DNA of 64,000 bases, taken from contig MFQC01000003.1 of NCBI GenBank assembly GCA_001784285.1, positions 144,159-208,158 of the forward strand. The letters run 5' to 3'. Source of the DNA: Candidatus Magasanikbacteria bacterium RIFCSPHIGHO2_02_FULL_48_18. GTDB taxonomy: Bacteria > Patescibacteriota > Patescibacteriia > Magasanikbacterales > UBA922. Under the pieces are notes generated by a model. It did no database searches, was not told where the DNA came from, and saw only the letters and a list, made by a program, of their open reading frames with translations. The translations under genes were made by a program, and so were the position numbers. Positions 46,323 through 52,783 of the stretch are shown here, one piece after another; positions within the stretch are counted from its first letter, which is position 1; every line of letters begins with the position of its first letter.

Positions 46323-47690
46323 TCATGATAATAAAAAAGAACGCCCCCGCCGTATTTTTTGATGAGCAATGGCAAAACGATGCGCTTCATCCCGTACATG
46401 GATCAATACTTTTTTATTTCGATACACCCACCGCACAAACGCGGAATTTTTCTCGCCAAGAACAAACTCGTTCTTTTTTCTGTCCGGTCCTTTGGCAATG
46501 CCAACAACGGGAATATCAATTTGTTTCTCCGCAAAAATTTTTTTCACGCAATTCACTTGCGGCTTTCCGCCGTCAACCAAAAAGACATTCGGCAAAGGCC
46601 ACTCTTGACTTTTGACAGTTGACTTTTGACAGTTGACTTTTGACGCCATTGACTCTGAGGTCTGACAACTGGTGAGCACATGCTTCAGCCGCCGCTCTAT
46701 CACTTCGGCCAGACAATCCACATCGCTCTGCCCTTTGACCGTTCGTATCGTAAAATGGCGGTATTCTTTTTTGTCGGGCATTCCATTTATAAAAACAACC
46801 ATCGATCCAACTTTGCCGGCCGATCCAAAATTGGAAATATCGTATCCTTCAATGCGCCCGTACTCAGCGGCTGTCCCATGCGTCAGAGGATCATGGACAA
46901 ACGACGCATTGAGCAAGGCAATATCTTGAATGCGTTGCAATGACGCAATCTGATCGTGCAAACGAGCCGCTTCTTCAAAGTCATGATTCTTGGACGCTTC
47001 ACGCATGTGTGTTCCCAATGTTTTGATCAATCGCTTTTTTCCTCCTCTTAAAAACGTACGAAGCGGCTGGATCACTTTTTCTGTATATTCTTTTGAGGAA
47101 ATTTTTCCGGTGCAAACGCCGAGACACTCGCCAATTTGATAATAAAAACAAGGCTTTTTTTTTGACAATTGACTTTTTTGTTGTTTTTGACACGTTGAAA
47201 AGAAAAATAATCGGCGAAGGAGCGTCATCGTTGCTTTGGTATTAAGTCCAGGATATGGACCAAACATAAACGCAAACTGCTTTTTTCGTAATTTCGTACG
47301 ATTCGTAATTTCGTACATGCTCTTCAATTCATGCGCCCGTATCGGAATTACCTGGGGAAATTCCTCTTTTGTCATGACAATATAATTCCAACTTTTGTCG
47401 TCCTTCCCATCCACGTTATATTTGGGCTGATATTTTTTGATAGCATTGGCTTCTAAAATAATTGCTTCCAAAACTGAATCGGTTTGTCTCCAATCAATAC
47501 AGCCAACCTCATGAATCATGTGTTCAATCGGACGCGGGGTTCGCGCGCCGGCAAAATACGAACGCACGCGATTGCGAAGCGATGTGGCCTTTCCGACATA
47601 GATCAATTCTTTTTTGCGGCTATAAAAAAGATAGATGCCCGGCGCATCGGGCAGGTCGGAAAGCGCTGTCTCAATGTTTTTTTGCGTCAT
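46323..47690 (-). CDS. uvrC: Excinuclease ABC subunit C, truncated form lacking the C-terminal (HhH)2 domain.
   Basis: GIY-YIG N-terminus (GIYLFYSRKKELIYVGKATSLRNR). UvrB-interaction helix HDFEEAARLHDQIASLQ. RNase H-like endonuclease domain ending ...HVRDEAHRFAIAHQK. The ORF stops about 150 aa short of canonical UvrC. Confidence 0.8.
   Translation of the reverse strand: MTQKNIETALSDLPDAPGIYLFYSRKKELIYVGKATSLRNRVRSYFAGARTPRPIEHMIHEVGCIDWRQTDSVLEAIILEANAIKKYQPKYNVDGKDDKSWNYIVMTKEEFPQVIPIRAHELKSMYEITNRTKLRKKQFAFMFGPYPGLNTKATMTLLRRLFFFSTCQKQQKSQLSKKKPCFYYQIGECLGVCTGKISSKEYTEKVIQPLRTFLRGGKKRLIKTLGTHMREASKNHDFEEAARLHDQIASLQRIQDIALLNASFVHDPLTHGTAAEYGRIEGYDISNFGSAGKVGSMVVFINGMPDKKEYRHFTIRTVKGQSDVDCLAEVIERRLKHVLTSCQTSESMASKVNCQKSTVKSQEWPLPNVFLVDGGKPQVNCVKKIFAEKQIDIPVVGIAKGPDRKKNEFVLGEKNSAFVRWVYRNKKVLIHVRDEAHRFAIAHQKIRRGRSFLLS
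46605..46646. repeat. Three tandem 14-nt repeats (ttgacttttgacag x3) lying inside uvrC and kept in frame.
   Basis: Three direct copies; the third ends ...gacgc. Total length 42 nt, so the reading frame is kept. Encodes KVNCQKSTVKSQ in the UvrC linker. Confidence 0.6.
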
Positions 47691-47813: not shown

Positions 47814-47841
47814 TTGACGAAATTTTCAAAAAGGGTATACT
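47814..47841 (+). promoter_or_regulatory. Sigma70-like promoter (TTGACG-16-TATACT) pointing rightward into the uvrC/foreign-gene intergenic region.
   Basis: -35 TTGACG at 47814-47819. 16-nt spacer. -10 TATACT at 47836-47841. Confidence 0.3.
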
Positions 47842-47947
47842 TCTTCTGTTATGATTTTTAAATCGCGACAATCCGTTCAAGCCGCATATTATTACAACAG
47901 CTCCGCGCTAGGGTTGTTGTAATTCTTGACATTTTTTGTCAGTATAG

Positions 47948-47975
47948 CCGCCCTAGCCGGGCGGTTTTTTTTATT
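47948..47975 (+). terminator. Rho-independent terminator.
   Basis: ccgccc-tagcc-gggcgg followed by a 9-T run. Confidence 0.55.
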
Positions 47976-48040
47976 CGAAAATGCACTTGGCGCCTGAATG
48001 TTTCAGGAGCCGACCACATTTCCGAAACCAAAACCATAAC

Positions 48041-48148
48041 AGCACTTTCGCGTTTGATTGCCTTCGAGCGGGTTCTGTCTCCGCAACGGAGACAGCCCTG
48101 AGCCGATACAGGCGAAGAAAGCGAGAAGGCTATCAACGCGAAAGTGCT
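48041..48148 (+). promoter_or_regulatory. Structured ~110-nt leader or MITE-like element bounded by a perfect 14-bp inverted repeat, immediately upstream of the RBS of the GC-rich gene.
   Basis: agcactttcgcgtt (48041-48054) and aacgcgaaagtgct (48135-48148) are perfectly complementary. Internal 9-bp hairpin ctgtctccg-caa-cggagacag (48075-48095). GGAGG RBS at 48154-48158. Confidence 0.4.
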
Positions 48149-48164
48149 ACAGAGGAGGAAAAAA

Positions 48165-49436
48165 ATGTGGAAAAATTTTGCGGCTCTCGAAGATCATCGC
48201 GCCCACGCGGACTCGCCGCTAGGCCACATCCCGATCCCTGGTCGGGAGTGGTACGGTATGCGCGGTCTCATGACCAATGCCCCCCTCATGATCGCGCCCG
48301 GCGGCATTGAGTGGGAACTCATCGAGGCCCTTCGAGGCCGGGGAATCGGCCCCCGCGAGGTCGTCGAGGTGGATGACCTAGTCCTCGACTGCGCGCGGGG
48401 CCCTGTCGCTGACAAAATCCGCCGCTGTGACGGAATCCGGCCGTTCTGGTTCGGCCGGACCGAAGAGGAGCTCTTCAATGAGCTCGGCATGCCGGCCGCG
48501 ATCACAGCCAACCAGATGAGGGATCTCAACTGCAAGGCGATCTTTCGGATGATCGCGAAGCAACAGGGCTTCGGTCATCTGGTACCCCTGAATGGGGTCG
48601 GTACGACCGAGGCACACGCGCTTGAGACGTTCGAGCGCATCCGGGCCATGCTCGGCCACGACGGCCACCCGATTCCCGACGCGGCCATCCTCAAACAAAC
48701 TGGACTCCTGTCCGGCGCCGGGATGGAGGTCCACACAACGACGGATGGTGTCAAGGGCTACTGCCGGCGCCAGCTCGACGGCAAGCCCATGATCATCGAG
48801 GCGGCCTACCTGCGGCACATGGCCGCCTCGGCACACTGGAATCTGTCCGCCAGTGGCTGGAGCAGGGCAGGCACAACAGTCAACTTCATCTCCGGCGGGG
48901 TATGCCACGAGGGCAACCTGTACGCCTCGCATGCACAGCCAATCCCCGGACTCTTGCTCAAGGACATGGCCACCATGTACTGGATCGGGGAGCACTGGAT
49001 TCGGGAATGGTGGAAGATGGGTTTCCGTGAGATGGCCGTGGGTATTGACTTCATCAAGGTCCGCGGCTTGTGCGGCAGGGTTCGGTGGTACGCCATTGAA
49101 CCGAACATCTTCCGCCCGCCGGCGCCACGGTACGGATTCGCGCTCGGCGAGCAGATCGCACCACGGCTCGGTGGACGCTGGGCCATTGCCCAGTCGAACG
49201 TCTACCCGGCTCCGGGAGCCGCGGACAACTTCCGCGAACTGGCGCGGCTCCTCAGGGGGCTCCTGTTCGACGGCAAGAGCGGCGCCGTCCCCACGCTCGT
49301 CGAGCTCTTGCCCCATGGCAAGTTCCAGGCGTTCTGTGTCGCCGAGAACGGCTGGAAGGCAATGCGGCTCCTCACTCGGGTCAAGGAGCGCGTCGGGGAC
49401 ACAAAGTCGGTCGCGATCCCTGATCTCGACCGCTAG
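48165..49436 (+). CDS. Compositionally foreign (GC-rich) gene encoding a ~424-aa protein with ATP-grasp-like C-terminal motifs. Function unknown.
   Basis: Strong G/C third-position codon bias, unlike every other gene in the window. GGAGG-6nt-ATG start. Motifs GTTVNFISGG and AVGIDFIKVRGLCGRVRWYAIEPNIFRPP resemble the ATP-grasp R-x-N...GG and GxD...E-x-N motifs. The antisense 373-aa ORF is a GC-rich shadow. Confidence 0.6.
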   Translation: MWKNFAALEDHRAHADSPLGHIPIPGREWYGMRGLMTNAPLMIAPGGIEWELIEALRGRGIGPREVVEVDDLVLDCARGPVADKIRRCDGIRPFWFGRTEEELFNELGMPAAITANQMRDLNCKAIFRMIAKQQGFGHLVPLNGVGTTEAHALETFERIRAMLGHDGHPIPDAAILKQTGLLSGAGMEVHTTTDGVKGYCRRQLDGKPMIIEAAYLRHMAASAHWNLSASGWSRAGTTVNFISGGVCHEGNLYASHAQPIPGLLLKDMATMYWIGEHWIREWWKMGFREMAVGIDFIKVRGLCGRVRWYAIEPNIFRPPAPRYGFALGEQIAPRLGGRWAIAQSNVYPAPGAADNFRELARLLRGLLFDGKSGAVPTLVELLPHGKFQAFCVAENGWKAMRLLTRVKERVGDTKSVAIPDLDR

Positions 49437-49456
49437 GAGGATAAAAGGAGGAAAAC

Positions 49457-49495
49457 GCGGAGCGCTCACCATGAGCCGCTCCGCCATCCTTTTTT
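49457..49495 (+). terminator. Rho-independent terminator. It may also serve the convergent uvrA.
   Basis: gcggagcg-ctcaccatgagc-cgctccgc followed by catcctttttt. Confidence 0.6.
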
Positions 49496-49539
49496 GCATG
49501 TGTTTGAGACGCGCGCAAAAAAGGATGAAAAAACAACTT

Positions 49540-52143
49540 TTAAGAAAAATAAGTTTTCAAATATGCGCCCGTGTGACTCACCGTTCGTTTTCTGACTATT
49601 TCTTCCGGTGTCCCTTCCGCAACCAGTTCTCCGCCTTTGTTGCCGCCCTCAGGTCCCAAATCAATAATCCAATCCGCGCATTTAATCACATCCAAATTGT
49701 GTTCAATCACCATGACCGTGTTTCCTTTTGACACGAGGCTTTGCAATACATCAATCAATTTTCGCACATCATCATAATGCAACCCGGTGGTTGGTTCATC
49801 CAATAAATACAGCGTTTTGGTGGTGTTTCGTTTTGCCAATTCGCGGCTCAATTTTATACGCTGTGCTTCTCCGCCGGACAATGTTGTAGCGGACTGGCCA
49901 AGCGTCAAATAATCCAAACCCACATTATTTAATACGGACAATTTATCATAAATCTGCGGAATGTCTTTGAAAAATTCTTCCGCCTCTTCAATGGTCATCT
50001 CAAGCACTTCGGCAATATTTTTATGATTGTATTCCACGGCAAGCGTTTCTTCGGCAAACCGTTTTCCTTTGCACGCATCGCACACAATGTGGACGCTCGG
50101 CAAAAAATGCATTTCAATTTCAAGCACGCCGCGTCCTTCGCACTGTTCGCATCGTCCGCCCGGACGATTAAAGCTGAACCGCCCTTTTTTGTATCCTCGA
50201 ATTCTTGCTTCAGCTGTTGCGGCAAACAAATCACGAATATGGTCGTAGGCTTTGGTGTAGGTTGCCGGATTGCTCCGGGGAGTGCGTCCAATAGGGCTTT
50301 GATCAATTTCAATAATTTTATCAATATATTCCAAACCGACAATCGCTTTATGCCCGCCCACGGCTTTATTGACATGATTTAGCCGGTTGGCCGCGGACCG
50401 ATATAAAATATCATGCATAAGAGTGGACTTTCCTGATCCTGAAACACCGGTAAGACACACAAAGCGCCGCAGGGGAATATCCACATTCATATTTTTTAAA
50501 TTATGATGCGTGGCCCCTTTTATCTTTATTTTAGGCGTATACTGATCCACTTTTCGTCTTTTTTCCGGCATGGACACACTCTTTTCTCTACGCAAATACT
50601 GCCCGGTGATGGAATCTTTTGAGCTCCCATACCGTTGGCACCGGATGTCTGTACGATCATTTTTCCTATTCAACAGCTCATCCTTGGTCCCTGAATACAC
50701 CACATGCCCGCCATGCTTTCCTGCCCCGGGGCCAATATCCACAATCCAATCGCTTGCCATAATGGTGTCTTCATCGTGTTCAACGACAATAATGGTATTT
50801 CCAATATCACACAAATTTCGAAGCGTCCGCACAAGCTGTGCGTTGTCCCGTTGATGCAACCCAATGGTTGGTTCGTCCAAAATATACATGGCACCCACCA
50901 ATTTTTGACCGACTTGAGACGCAAGACGAATGCGCTGGGCTTCTCCGCCGGATAATGTGCCCGCTTTCCGATTGAGCGAGAGATATTCGAGACCAACATC
51001 GAGCATAAACGAAAGCCGATTTTGGATTTCCCGCAATGCGGCGCCTGAAATTTCTTTTTCTTTCGGCGGCAATGTATCATCCAATGATAAAAAAAACTCG
51101 GCCGCTTCTTCAATCGTCATGGCGCTCACTTCCCAGATATTTTTTTCTTCAATTTTTACGGATAACGCGTTGGTATTGAGACGTTTGCCTTCACAGGATG
51201 GGCAGATCTCTTCGCTGAATAATTCTCTGGTTCCCAGCCCTGTACACGCGGCACAATAGCCGTATGGGCTATTAAAACTAAACAATCTTGGTTCGATTTC
51301 CGGAAAACTATAGCCGTCCTTGGGACAGGAATATTCGGTAGAAAAAACGTCTTCTTCTCCATTTTCAAAAACCACAATGCAGAGCCCGTTGGAAAGTTCC
51401 ACAGCCGTTTCAACGGCTTCGGTGAGTCGTTGCTTTTGTTCTGTCGTTTCTTCTTTCTTTTTTCTTTCCCGGCCAAAGGTGTCTGTTTGACCAAACGTAT
51501 CAACCACAACGTCAATCACGTGTTTCTTATTCTTGGACAAAACCATTCTCTCTTTGAGCGATCGCATCTTCCCATCGACACGGACATTCAAAAACCCGGA
51601 ATTGTAGAGATCATAAAGCATTTGATAATATTCGCCTTTTCTTCCGCGGACAACCGGAGAAAGAATTGTTCCTCCATCTTTTTGCCGACTCATTTTTTGC
51701 ATGATTCTTTCCACCATCTGATCAACGCTTATTTTTTCAATTTTTGTTCCGCACAAGGGACAATAGGGTTTTCCAACGCGGGCGTACAACACACGGAGAT
51801 AGTCATATATTTCTGTAATCGTGGCAACCGTAGAACGCGGGTTGGCGCTATGCGCTTTTTGGTCAATGGAAATCGCCGGAGAAAGCCCCTCAATTTCATC
51901 AACATCCGGCTTTTGCATACCGCCTAAAAATTGCCTGGCATAGGCCGAAAGACTTTCAATATATCGGCGCTGGCCTTCGGCAAAAATAGTATCAAAGGCA
52001 AGGGAGGACTTTCCCGAACCGGAAAGACCGGTAAACACAATCATCCGGTTCCGCGGGAGTTCCAGATTGATATTTTTGAGATTGTGTTCGCGCGCTCCTT
52101 TGATGATAATGGTGTCCTGCATACATGGAGCCCCGATGGCCAT
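49540..52143 (-). CDS. uvrA: Excinuclease ABC subunit A. The long ORF extends to 52257; the start is probably the internal Met.
   Basis: Two ABC ATPase modules ([14 protein letters not shown]..., [10 protein letters not shown]...). Zn fingers CxxC. LSGGEAQR signature twice. Confidence 0.9.
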
Positions 52144-52318
52144 CGGGGTGACATCCCGAAACGACAAAAAAGCCCTCAAAAAGGGCCCTCCTGAAAAGTG
52201 TTCCAAAGAACATGCGTAAGAATAAGCCCAGTATACCCGTCTCAAAAGAAAAGTCAATTGTATAAAAAAAAGTTTTTGAGTATACTATTTTATTAACCTA
52301 TTTGATCTGTATCATTCT

Positions 52319-52783
52319 ATGAAACATTATCCTCTCGGCCTTTTCGCTGTTGCCGCTATGGTCATTTTTCTTGGCGCGGGATGCATTGGCGAAAATGCCG
52401 CACAAAACACGAACCAGCCGTCGCCAGCCACATCGACCACCAAAGACGAAAAAACCACATCGATGCCGGAAGAGCCGTCGAAAAATATACCCTCCCTGGC
52501 TGAAGGCATTGTGCTCAACGGAACAGTGAAGGGAAACAGAACCATAGAGCTTGAATGGGTGGTTGCTCCGGAACTTGCGGAGCAGGCGGATAAATACTAT
52601 TTTACTCTTGACAGCGAACCAAACCCAACAGCGCCGGGACGCTATTGGTATTGGCGCGGACCCACCTACCGAGAGCTCACCTGGACCAATCTTCCTATTG
52701 GTCAGCAACACATCCGCGTCTGTGTCATGGCAGGTGAAACATGTATCGCGTACAGCAACGATCTTGCGGTCGAAATTAAATAA
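52319..52783 (+). CDS. Hypothetical secreted lipoprotein.
   Basis: Signal peptide with lipobox FLGAGC, followed by a Thr/Ser/Pro-rich linker and a ~100-aa domain. Confidence 0.55.
   Translation: MKHYPLGLFAVAAMVIFLGAGCIGENAAQNTNQPSPATSTTKDEKTTSMPEEPSKNIPSLAEGIVLNGTVKGNRTIELEWVVAPELAEQADKYYFTLDSEPNPTAPGRYWYWRGPTYRELTWTNLPIGQQHIRVCVMAGETCIAYSNDLAVEIK

Follow-up and report, generated by a model that had tools for sequence, protein, structure and literature searches.

The solved structures nearest to the protein described here are Streptomyces PGM1, which is the peptide ligase of pheganomycin (3wvq), 8ynd and BesA (8yi6), which belong to or resemble peptide ligases of the PGM1 type. ATP-grasp enzymes encoded beside small peptide genes are also known from branches of the Candidate Phyla Radiation (CPR), in the form of graspetide ligases (Makarova et al. 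2022, PMC8939145), and a ribosome-controlled terminator placed after a tiny precursor open reading frame (ORF) has been described for the mccA-mccB microcin C operon (Zukher et al. 2014, PMC4231749). Here we analysed a stretch of 64,000 nucleotides (nt), hereafter the window, of Candidatus Magasanikbacteria bacterium RIFCSPHIGHO2_02_FULL_48_18 (contig MFQC01000003.1, positions 144,159 to 208,158, forward strand). It contains, between uvrC and uvrA, a G+C-rich coding sequence (CDS) for a PGM1-like ATP-grasp ligase. The ligase is just 15–17% identical to PGM1, 8ynd and BesA, and it is accompanied neither by genes for a non-proteinogenic acyl donor nor by a protease gene. It further differs from PGM1-type systems in that its host is a small-genome CPR bacterium, and in that the putative partner peptide, predicted from a small ORF (sORF) upstream, would be translated leaderless and is 17–23 amino acids (aa) long and Tyr-rich. 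We consider it probable that the G+C-rich CDS encodes a functional PGM1-like ligase which is a long-standing part of a cassette in the uvrA-uvrC slot, and that its G+C content (GC) is maintained by a force acting on the composition of the CDS. What is new in this locus is the combination of sORF, terminator and ligase in a hypervariable uvrA-uvrC slot, together with a persistent GC regime delimited by a CDS.

The GC of the ligase CDS is 0.641, with values of 0.65, 0.47 and 0.80 at the first, second and third codon positions (GC1, GC2 and GC3), and that of the whole window is 0.466. Segments of 1272 nt gave a mean of 0.466 and a standard deviation (sd) of 0.028, and the runner-up reached 0.513. 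GC3 of the remaining 50 ORFs with 100 aa or more averaged 0.479 ± 0.042 and never exceeded 0.594, which places the ligase about 7.6 sd away. The GC steps up within a single bin of 45 nt at the start codon and down within one at the stop codon. A first-pass annotation, made from the letters of the window, had described a lone gene with a sharp GC jump at its ends among genes that all have a low-GC codon style, and both descriptions are borne out by these values; the length of the product, given there as 424 aa, is actually 423 aa. The codon choice of the ligase is inverted with respect to that of the host, the shares of ligase versus host being 0.88 versus 0.19 for TTC, 1.00 versus 0.27 for TAC, 0.80 versus 0.21 for AAG, 0.77 versus 0.25 for GAG, 0.78 versus 0.24 for ATC, 0.62 versus 0.22 for CTC and 0.76 versus 0.27 for GTC. 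All eight Tyr codons of the ligase are TAC, and the host-like series TAT TAT TAC is present about 240 nt upstream in the sORF of the same transcript.

Five clusters of orthologues were found, at loci L007, L010, L011, L012 and L014, all of them from low-GC Patescibacteria (no flanking genes are present on the short contigs of L011 and L012). The proteins are 36–49% identical to the ligase of the window. Those of L007 and L014 are encoded between uvrC and uvrA, and the one of L010 adjoins a uvrC fragment. GC of the orthologous CDSs is 0.57–0.65 and GC3 0.65–0.80; the flanking DNA has a GC of 0.34–0.45 (about 0.45 for L011 and L012), and the neighbouring genes of L007, L010 and L014 have a GC3 of 0.38–0.50. 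All three codon positions are shifted upward, and the change of composition coincides with the start and stop codons in every orthologue. From carrier to carrier, UvrA is 76–78%, UvrC 59–65% and the ligase 36–49% identical; the number of synonymous substitutions per synonymous site (dS) was not computable for uvrA. In pairs of orthologues, the fraction of identical codons at identical amino acids equals the chance expectation from codon usage, and the G/C or A/T state of synonymous third positions is independent between orthologues (observed/independent ratio 0.89–1.15), the exception being the pair L010-L011 with a ratio of 0.62. Synonymous turnover is complete and yet GC3 is high, and therefore the high GC3 is stationary and not decaying. 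For L010 and L011, neutral decay towards the host equilibrium under a two-state model would have to start from an ancestral GC3 of about 0.97 or of more than 1.0; these two loci hold the cassette by common descent over a dS of 0.6–1.1, and GC3 was not lost. Together these results show that high GC3 is a stationary, CDS-confined property of the gene lineage, and not the un-ameliorated relic of a recent import.

The GC-rich clade forms a monophyletic group in the tree of the ligase family. The group that is sister to it includes P0009, from a patescibacterial metagenome-assembled genome (MAG) and with a GC3 of 0.42, and P0013, which was examined as protein only; the comparison of composition leaves out P0006, P0008 and P0013. 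No high-GC relative closer than this sister group is present in the tree. Distant members of the family in other Patescibacteria have a GC3 just 0.03–0.12 above that of their neighbours, and one member, at L017, is found in an organism of 59% GC. No copy of the ligase was detected in plasmids, phages or IMG/VR; a scan of public genome contigs gave no match, and a scan of metagenome contigs one contig that was already known. The search for a donor clade that had been suggested in the first-pass annotation thus produced no donor.

The ligase gave no match in single-sequence searches of Pfam, NCBIfam, PADLOC and the PDB sequences, and only five relatives among 5.8 billion protein clusters. A family profile run against 1.84 billion representatives retrieved 179 members (about 180 at 50% identity); all members with a named source are proteins of patescibacterial MAGs, most members being without a source name. 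A profile of 30 members matches PGM1 (E 2.4e-17) and 8ynd (E 6.9e-15), and the ligase lies nearer to these two than to other ATP-grasp clades. An ATP-grasp fold was obtained with an AlphaFold model, for which an alignment of the five sequences served as input, and independently with the family profile. We define here a previously undescribed family of PGM1-like ATP-grasp proteins. The assignment to ATP-grasp-like carboxylate-amine or peptide ligases, proposed earlier from motifs, is supported by the match to PGM1 and by the conserved E-x-N motif and catalytic residues. As an outcome that would weaken this assignment, a family of low-GC CPR genomes lacking an ATP-grasp fold had been envisaged; the family does come from low-GC CPR, but the fold is that of ATP-grasp enzymes. 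Residues K124, K177, D295, N314 and R317 are invariant in the 30 members and E212 and E312 are at least 90% conserved; the catalytic roles of these seven residues are putative and taken from the ATP-grasp consensus. The segment YAIEPNiFRP aligns with lfllEaNaRvt of the profile and with PGM1, and the stretch VGIDF...YAIEPNxFRPP is predicted to be the Mg/ATP-binding D...ExNxR region. Pfam ATP-grasp_3 was reached at E≤0.01 by 11 of the 30 members. Between L010 and L011 the number of non-synonymous substitutions per site (dN) is 0.10 and dS 0.61–1.13, and the resulting dN/dS of 0.07–0.16 indicates purifying selection. The conserved catalytic set, the profile matches and the low dN/dS strongly indicate that the ligase is, as judged from its sequence, an active and selected ATP-grasp enzyme of the PGM1 branch.

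Such an enzyme would form an acyl-phosphate from a carboxylate and then join it to an amine. No genes for the synthesis of an amino-acid-like acyl donor are located beside the ligase, its neighbours being the housekeeping genes secA, hpf, murB and uvrABC. The locus resembles the graspetide systems of CPR branches in having an ATP-grasp enzyme beside a small peptide gene; neither an MdnB/MdnC-type ATP-grasp enzyme nor a precursor whose core motifs combine Ser/Thr/Lys with Asp/Glu was found here. For distant members of the family (L016:253-3798, L020:5001-6976, L022:5001-7045 and L018:3450-6251) we observed that a gene for a class-I glutamine amidotransferase/Peptidase_C26 follows, or that tandem paralogues are present.

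We take the cassette to consist of a sigma-70 promoter, a leaderless sORF of 17–23 codons with a Tyr cluster, a terminator, a structured leader and the ligase gene, and to occur in a few Magasanikbacteria-like lineages. The positions of these features, and of the genes on both sides, are listed in Table 1.

Table 1. Features of the ligase cassette and its borders (window positions)
Feature	Position	Strand	Basis or remark
GC-rich CDS, 423-aa PGM1-like ATP-grasp ligase	48165..49436	+	composition, family profile, conserved residues, dN/dS
Sigma-70-like promoter (TTGACG, 16 nt, TATACT)	47814..47841	+	strong; 10/12 consensus matches
Leaderless sORF, 23 aa, MIFKSRQSVQAAYYYNSSALGLL	47851..47922	+	counterparts upstream of orthologues
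3' end of sORF, CGCTAGGGTTGTT, complementary to 5' arm and loop of the next terminator	47906..47918	+	RNAduplex
Intrinsic terminator/attenuator, AGCCGCCC-TAGCC-GGGCGGTT + T8	47946..47974	+	hairpin 47946-47966, then T-run
Structured 5' leader of the ligase	47975..48164	+	folding, inverted repeat
Ribosome-binding site (RBS) of the ligase, GGAGG	48154-48158	+	6 nt before ATG at 48165
Bidirectional terminator for ligase (+) and convergent uvrA (-), GCGGAGCG, 12 nt, CGCTCCGC	49457..49495	.	inverted repeat
uvrC	46323..47690	-	one wall of the variable uvrA-uvrC slot
uvrA	49540..52257	-	other wall of the uvrA-uvrC slot

The distance between the -10 hexamer and the ATG of the sORF is 7–11 nt in the window and in L007, L014, L010, L016, L020 and L022, and because of this short distance the sORF is considered to be leaderless. 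Counterparts of the sORF, each with a promoter before it and an intrinsic terminator after it, are present upstream of all orthologues with enough flanking sequence (L007 MNRGTTSQFGNVYYYNHSLRMK, L014 MNTKLNTAMYAYYKSLVRM, L010 MKRVLWQSGMYYGNPSY and L011 MKQVSWQSDMYYGNSSC). They have 17–23 codons, and the Tyr cluster is kept as YYYN, YAYYK or YYGN. The peptides had no match in Pfam or NCBIfam, and the product may serve as a precursor peptide or else as a leader peptide with a regulatory role. In distant members of the family (L015, L016, L020 and L022) promoter, leaderless sORF and terminator are also kept, with other peptides, for instance ..LFITR... The ligase leader contains a perfect 14-bp stem (48041-48054/48135-48148), and CCACAUUU (48015-48022) is predicted to pair with AAAUGUGG, a segment containing the AUG of the ligase. 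The minimum free energy (MFE) of the region 47973-48180 is -86.3 kcal/mol (z -8.2 versus 200 shuffles). Long hairpins of differing sequence precede the RBS in L007, L011 and L012, and there is none in L014. No Rfam family was detected in the region, the top match being a sub-threshold one to Phe_leader (23.9 bits versus a gathering score of 55). The hairpin of the downstream terminator (49457-49484) has a CATCCTTTTTT tail on the plus strand and a GTTTTCCTCCTTTT tail on the minus strand, and a GCGGAGC...GCTCCGCCAT hairpin is also present 3' of the L007 orthologue. The RBS and this terminator had been called native-looking in the first-pass annotation, which fits the GGAGG at 6 nt from the ATG and the hairpin. 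With respect to the two terminators said there to bracket the gene, the downstream one is present, but the upstream one closes the separate small ORF. As a separate observation, a 13-nt inverted repeat (47846-47858/48030-48042, 12 of 13 positions complementary) connects the 5' end of the sORF, including its ATG, with the ligase leader; pairing of its halves in read-through transcripts could block translation of the sORF.

The last 5–25 nt of the sORF can pair with the 5' arm and loop of the terminator; in the window this pairing has an RNAduplex dG of -15.9, compared with -8.3 ± 2.6 for shuffles (p 0.008). Complementarity with p≤0.008 was found in six of nine loci of the family, at positions -26 to +5 with respect to the sORF stop codon, the distant loci L015, L016 and L020 included. 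The paired sequences vary in a compensatory manner (GCTAGGG/CCCTAGC, GCTCAGG/CCTGAGC and GTCAGGATG/CATCCTGAC). By sequence, the locus therefore has what defines the attenuator class, i.e. a short ORF followed by a terminator and a competing pairing inside the ORF. At L014 the equivalent terminator stops about 10 nt before the RBS of the ligase, from which it follows that the ligase would be transcribed by read-through. According to the mechanism that we propose, transcription would begin at the sORF, the 3' end of the sORF can pair with the 5' arm and loop of the terminator, and occupancy of the sORF by ribosomes would set the share of transcripts ending before the ligase gene. The adjacent Tyr-rich peptide would be the most likely partner of the ligase; it may be its substrate, in keeping with the precedent of PGM1, or else a sensor of Tyr codons.

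This arrangement is similar to that of mccA-mccB, where a tiny ORF is likewise followed by a terminator dependent on upstream sequence and on ribosome occupancy, with the enzyme gene reached by read-through (predicted in our case). It differs in the enzyme, MccB being an adenylating E1-like protein and the ligase an ATP-grasp protein, and in the peptide gene, because MccA has 7 aa and an RBS whereas the sORF begins right at the start of transcription or next to it. The locus is also reminiscent of the trp, phe and his leader attenuators, with its tandem Tyr-Tyr(-Tyr) in a short ORF and a terminator that has an alternative partner in the 3' end of the ORF. Unlike in those, the gene downstream is no recognisable Tyr-biosynthesis gene, the match to Phe_leader stays below the gathering score, and the lowest-energy full-length fold is itself terminator-like.

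In 58 of 80 fetched patescibacterial loci uvrA is directly followed by uvrC on the same strand. These are the uvrA loci of species representatives (L023-L102), with UvrA 58–74% identical; the species of the window itself is apparently not in the set. The length of the uvrA-uvrC spacer varies between 9 nt and 4.5 kb, and its cargo is unrelated and lineage-specific, part of it AT-rich (L023, L028, L052 and the lysA-like gene of L036). The spacer behaves as a hot spot of integration or turnover without recognisable mobility genes. Within about 6 kb of the ligase the gene order is secA, hpf, murB, uvrC, ligase, uvrA, a 154-aa orphan, uvrB and an RNase J-like gene; in this interval we found no integrase or transposase, as noted before, and no flanking repeats. 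There are no tRNA genes near the ligase, both tRNAs of the window being more than 12 kb away.

As to the cause of the composition, we suppose that GC3 would be kept up against an AT-ward mutation pressure of the host by a force on the nucleotide composition of the CDS, most likely selection on the stability or structure of the ligase mRNA. In three of the five orthologues the MFE of the ligase mRNA is lower than that of synonymous shuffles (z -3.5, -4.2 and -5.3). This is suggestive of selection on mRNA folding; the support is not significant versus 12 host-gene controls. Some other candidate causes were dropped. An antisense ORF of 373 aa overlaps the ligase (48378-49499) and is broken in L007, L012 and L014. 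A mutational effect or GC-biased gene conversion acting on the whole slot is at odds with the AT-rich cargo that the slot holds elsewhere. Codon optimisation for high expression looks unlikely, since the ligase favours AAG over AAA and GAG over GAA, a preference unlike the usual pattern of translational selection, and no other gene of the window is written in such a style.

Several observations weigh against a long-standing cassette whose ligase has its GC maintained in place. The other two orthologues have mRNA z values of -1.7 and +0.1, and the z values overlap with those of the 12 controls (mean -0.9, sd 1.4, minimum -3.2). Avoidance of toxin motifs such as ACA, another conceivable force on the CDS, was rejected: beyond the effect of composition none of the k-mers shows a consistent depletion, and ACA is present in slight excess. 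The AlphaFold2 model of the ligase has a pLDDT (predicted local distance difference test) of 69.9, i.e. moderate confidence. In the lowest-energy full-length fold of the transcript, the sORF end pairs with the loop and the 3' arm of the terminator; this fold would still terminate, and antitermination is for this reason only a proposal. The ligase cassette was found in none of the 80 representative loci. The comparison with sibling genomes that the first-pass annotation advised thus had a divided outcome, with orthologues in the same slot at L007 and L014 and none in the representatives. In a bootstrapped UvrA tree carriers are mixed with non-carriers and monophyly of the carriers has 0% support; L007 groups with L028 (100%) and L014 with L024 (98%), and neither of these sisters, L028 and L024, has the cassette. 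The carriers being patchy and non-monophyletic, the cassette must have been lost several times or have spread laterally into the same slot, and lateral spread is possible. Moreover, the codon style of the ligase (C3>G3, CTC>>CTG, GTC>GTG, AAG, GAG) is the native style of high-GC Patescibacteria, and unrelated GC3-rich orphan genes are present in the same genomes, several of them in the uvrA-uvrC slot, which fits import.

The patchy carriers, the codon style and the GC3-rich orphans, together with the hypervariable slot with its differing cargo and the family member of L017, are what favours the main rival, a repeated recent import or allelic replacement of the CDS or the whole cassette from an unsampled high-GC patescibacterial reservoir. 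It would have reached the uvrA-uvrC slot of several low-GC Magasanikbacteria lineages independently, with donor composition still visible in every copy. We nevertheless regard it as rather unlikely. Every contig with a member of the clade has low-GC flanks, and homology among carriers extends to the AT-rich sORF, the attenuator and the terminator downstream, the GC change beginning at the ATG of the ligase; import would therefore need a swap of the CDS alone each time. The descent of the cassette in L010 and L011 with GC3 retained also speaks against it, as do the sister group, which is not high in GC where this could be checked (low GC3 of P0009; P0013 is protein only), the absence of the ligase from about 15 high-GC patescibacterial uvrA loci, and the lack of mobility genes and flanking repeats. 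A single recent transfer of the gene into this genome, with a high-GC donor such as an actinobacterial host, had been put forward in the first-pass annotation and would explain the extreme GC3 with its inverted codon preferences, the absence from most related genomes and the origin of the nearest solved structures in Streptomyces. It is very improbable in view of the low identity to PGM1, 8ynd and BesA, the patescibacterial origin of all source-named close relatives, the ordinary GC3 of the patescibacterial sister, and the same-slot orthologues of other lineages, with 36–49% identity and saturated synonymous divergence, which have the native-looking RBS, leader, sORF and terminator in common. 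In addition, Actinobacteria usually prefer CTG, the reverse of the CTC>>CTG of the ligase. From the signs of an islet of horizontal gene transfer (HGT), atypical composition was found here; nesting in a donor clade, mobility signatures and recent arrival were not. Acquired genes under the amelioration model do resemble the ligase in their atypical GC and codons, patchy occurrence and variable inter-gene slot, but its composition is undecayed despite saturated turnover, the tract ends at the edges of the CDS, and no donor and no mobility genes were found.

GC-biased gene conversion, in which strains would frequently exchange the ligase via conserved flanks and repair would raise GC where alleles differ, agrees with the highly conserved genes around the slot, with a ligase that evolves far faster than its neighbours and with the upward shift at all three codon positions. 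We judge it improbable, somewhat less so than a single acquisition: AT-rich cargo occupies the same slot in L023, L028, L052 and L036, six assemblies compared below have no polymorphism to speak of, and the GC3 excess of the ligase, 23–37 points, is far above known bacterial effects. Reported recombination-linked rises of GC3 in bacteria amount to a few points. Finally, a chimeric assembly or contaminating DNA, also raised in the first-pass annotation, has nothing in its favour beyond the odd composition itself, and is hardly conceivable. The identical ligase protein is recorded on 19 contigs. Six contigs that differ in sequencing run and assembler (SRR1658344, SRR2090155, SRR3990169, ANAN16-1, GCA_003485625.1 and GCA_001783105.1), two of which are GenBank MAGs named Candidatus Magasanikbacteria, differ from the window at 0–1 positions over up to 13.3 kb and span both junctions. 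A chimera is excluded because these independent assemblies agree across both junctions, and the orthologues from other samples have the same architecture.

High GC3 seems to mark about 1% of genes, mostly orphans, in these low-GC genomes. ORFs with a GC3 of 0.67–0.89 were seen in loci of 36–47% GC at L029:10600-10914, L035:5245-5571, L035:4695-5075, L036:7815-8063, L036:9718-10539, L025:579-830 and L024:3494-3889, several of them within the uvrA-uvrC spacer; one GC3-rich ORF is an AA_kinase-family gene (Pfam 2e-29) that adjoins the AT-rich lysA-like gene. Two further GC3-rich orphans in low-GC patescibacterial loci, L037:8595-9270 (187 aa, GC3 0.80) and L100:1241-1945 (192 aa, GC3 0.88), encode proteins without detectable likeness (BLASTP E 4.8). 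Starting at the stop codon, both are followed by an element that spans about 85 nt with roughly 85–90% identity, ACTCGGAC.CTCGGCRCTTCGGYGTCG...GTCCGGTCCTCRGTCACTTAGACCCTC followed by a terminator, with a UUCG-loop stem in which an A:U pair is changed to G:C in a compensatory manner. This element has no match in Rfam and is present neither in the window nor in the other loci. It could mark the end of a cassette or a site of recombination; alternatively, it could be a structured RNA at the 3' end that unrelated GC-rich cargo has in common. Between uvrA and uvrB of the window, on the strand opposite to both, lies the 154-aa ORF (52319-52783, plus strand), which gave no match in Pfam or PADLOC; L007 and L014 have ORFs of 129–155 aa at this position and strand, matched by position alone.

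Recent HGT is routinely called from atypical GC and codon usage, and in the ligase gene this signature outlasts complete synonymous turnover and ends at the borders of the reading frame. Either HGT calls based on composition can go badly astray for some genes, or CPR bacteria of low GC repeatedly draw on high-GC relatives at a hot spot. More tentatively, and with considerable doubt, we propose that a CDS-delimited high-GC3 regime is kept in situ, by selection on the mRNA or by an undescribed process, and that it coexists with a minimal PGM1-type peptide system under a ribosome-sensing terminator. If such a regime is true, it may concern perhaps about 1% of the accessory genes of low-GC Patescibacteria, and atypical composition would then mark a special class of expression and not foreign origin. 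The ligase family, with its leaderless sORF and terminator, is a candidate for a minimal module of peptide modification or amino-acid sensing in these biosynthesis-poor organisms.

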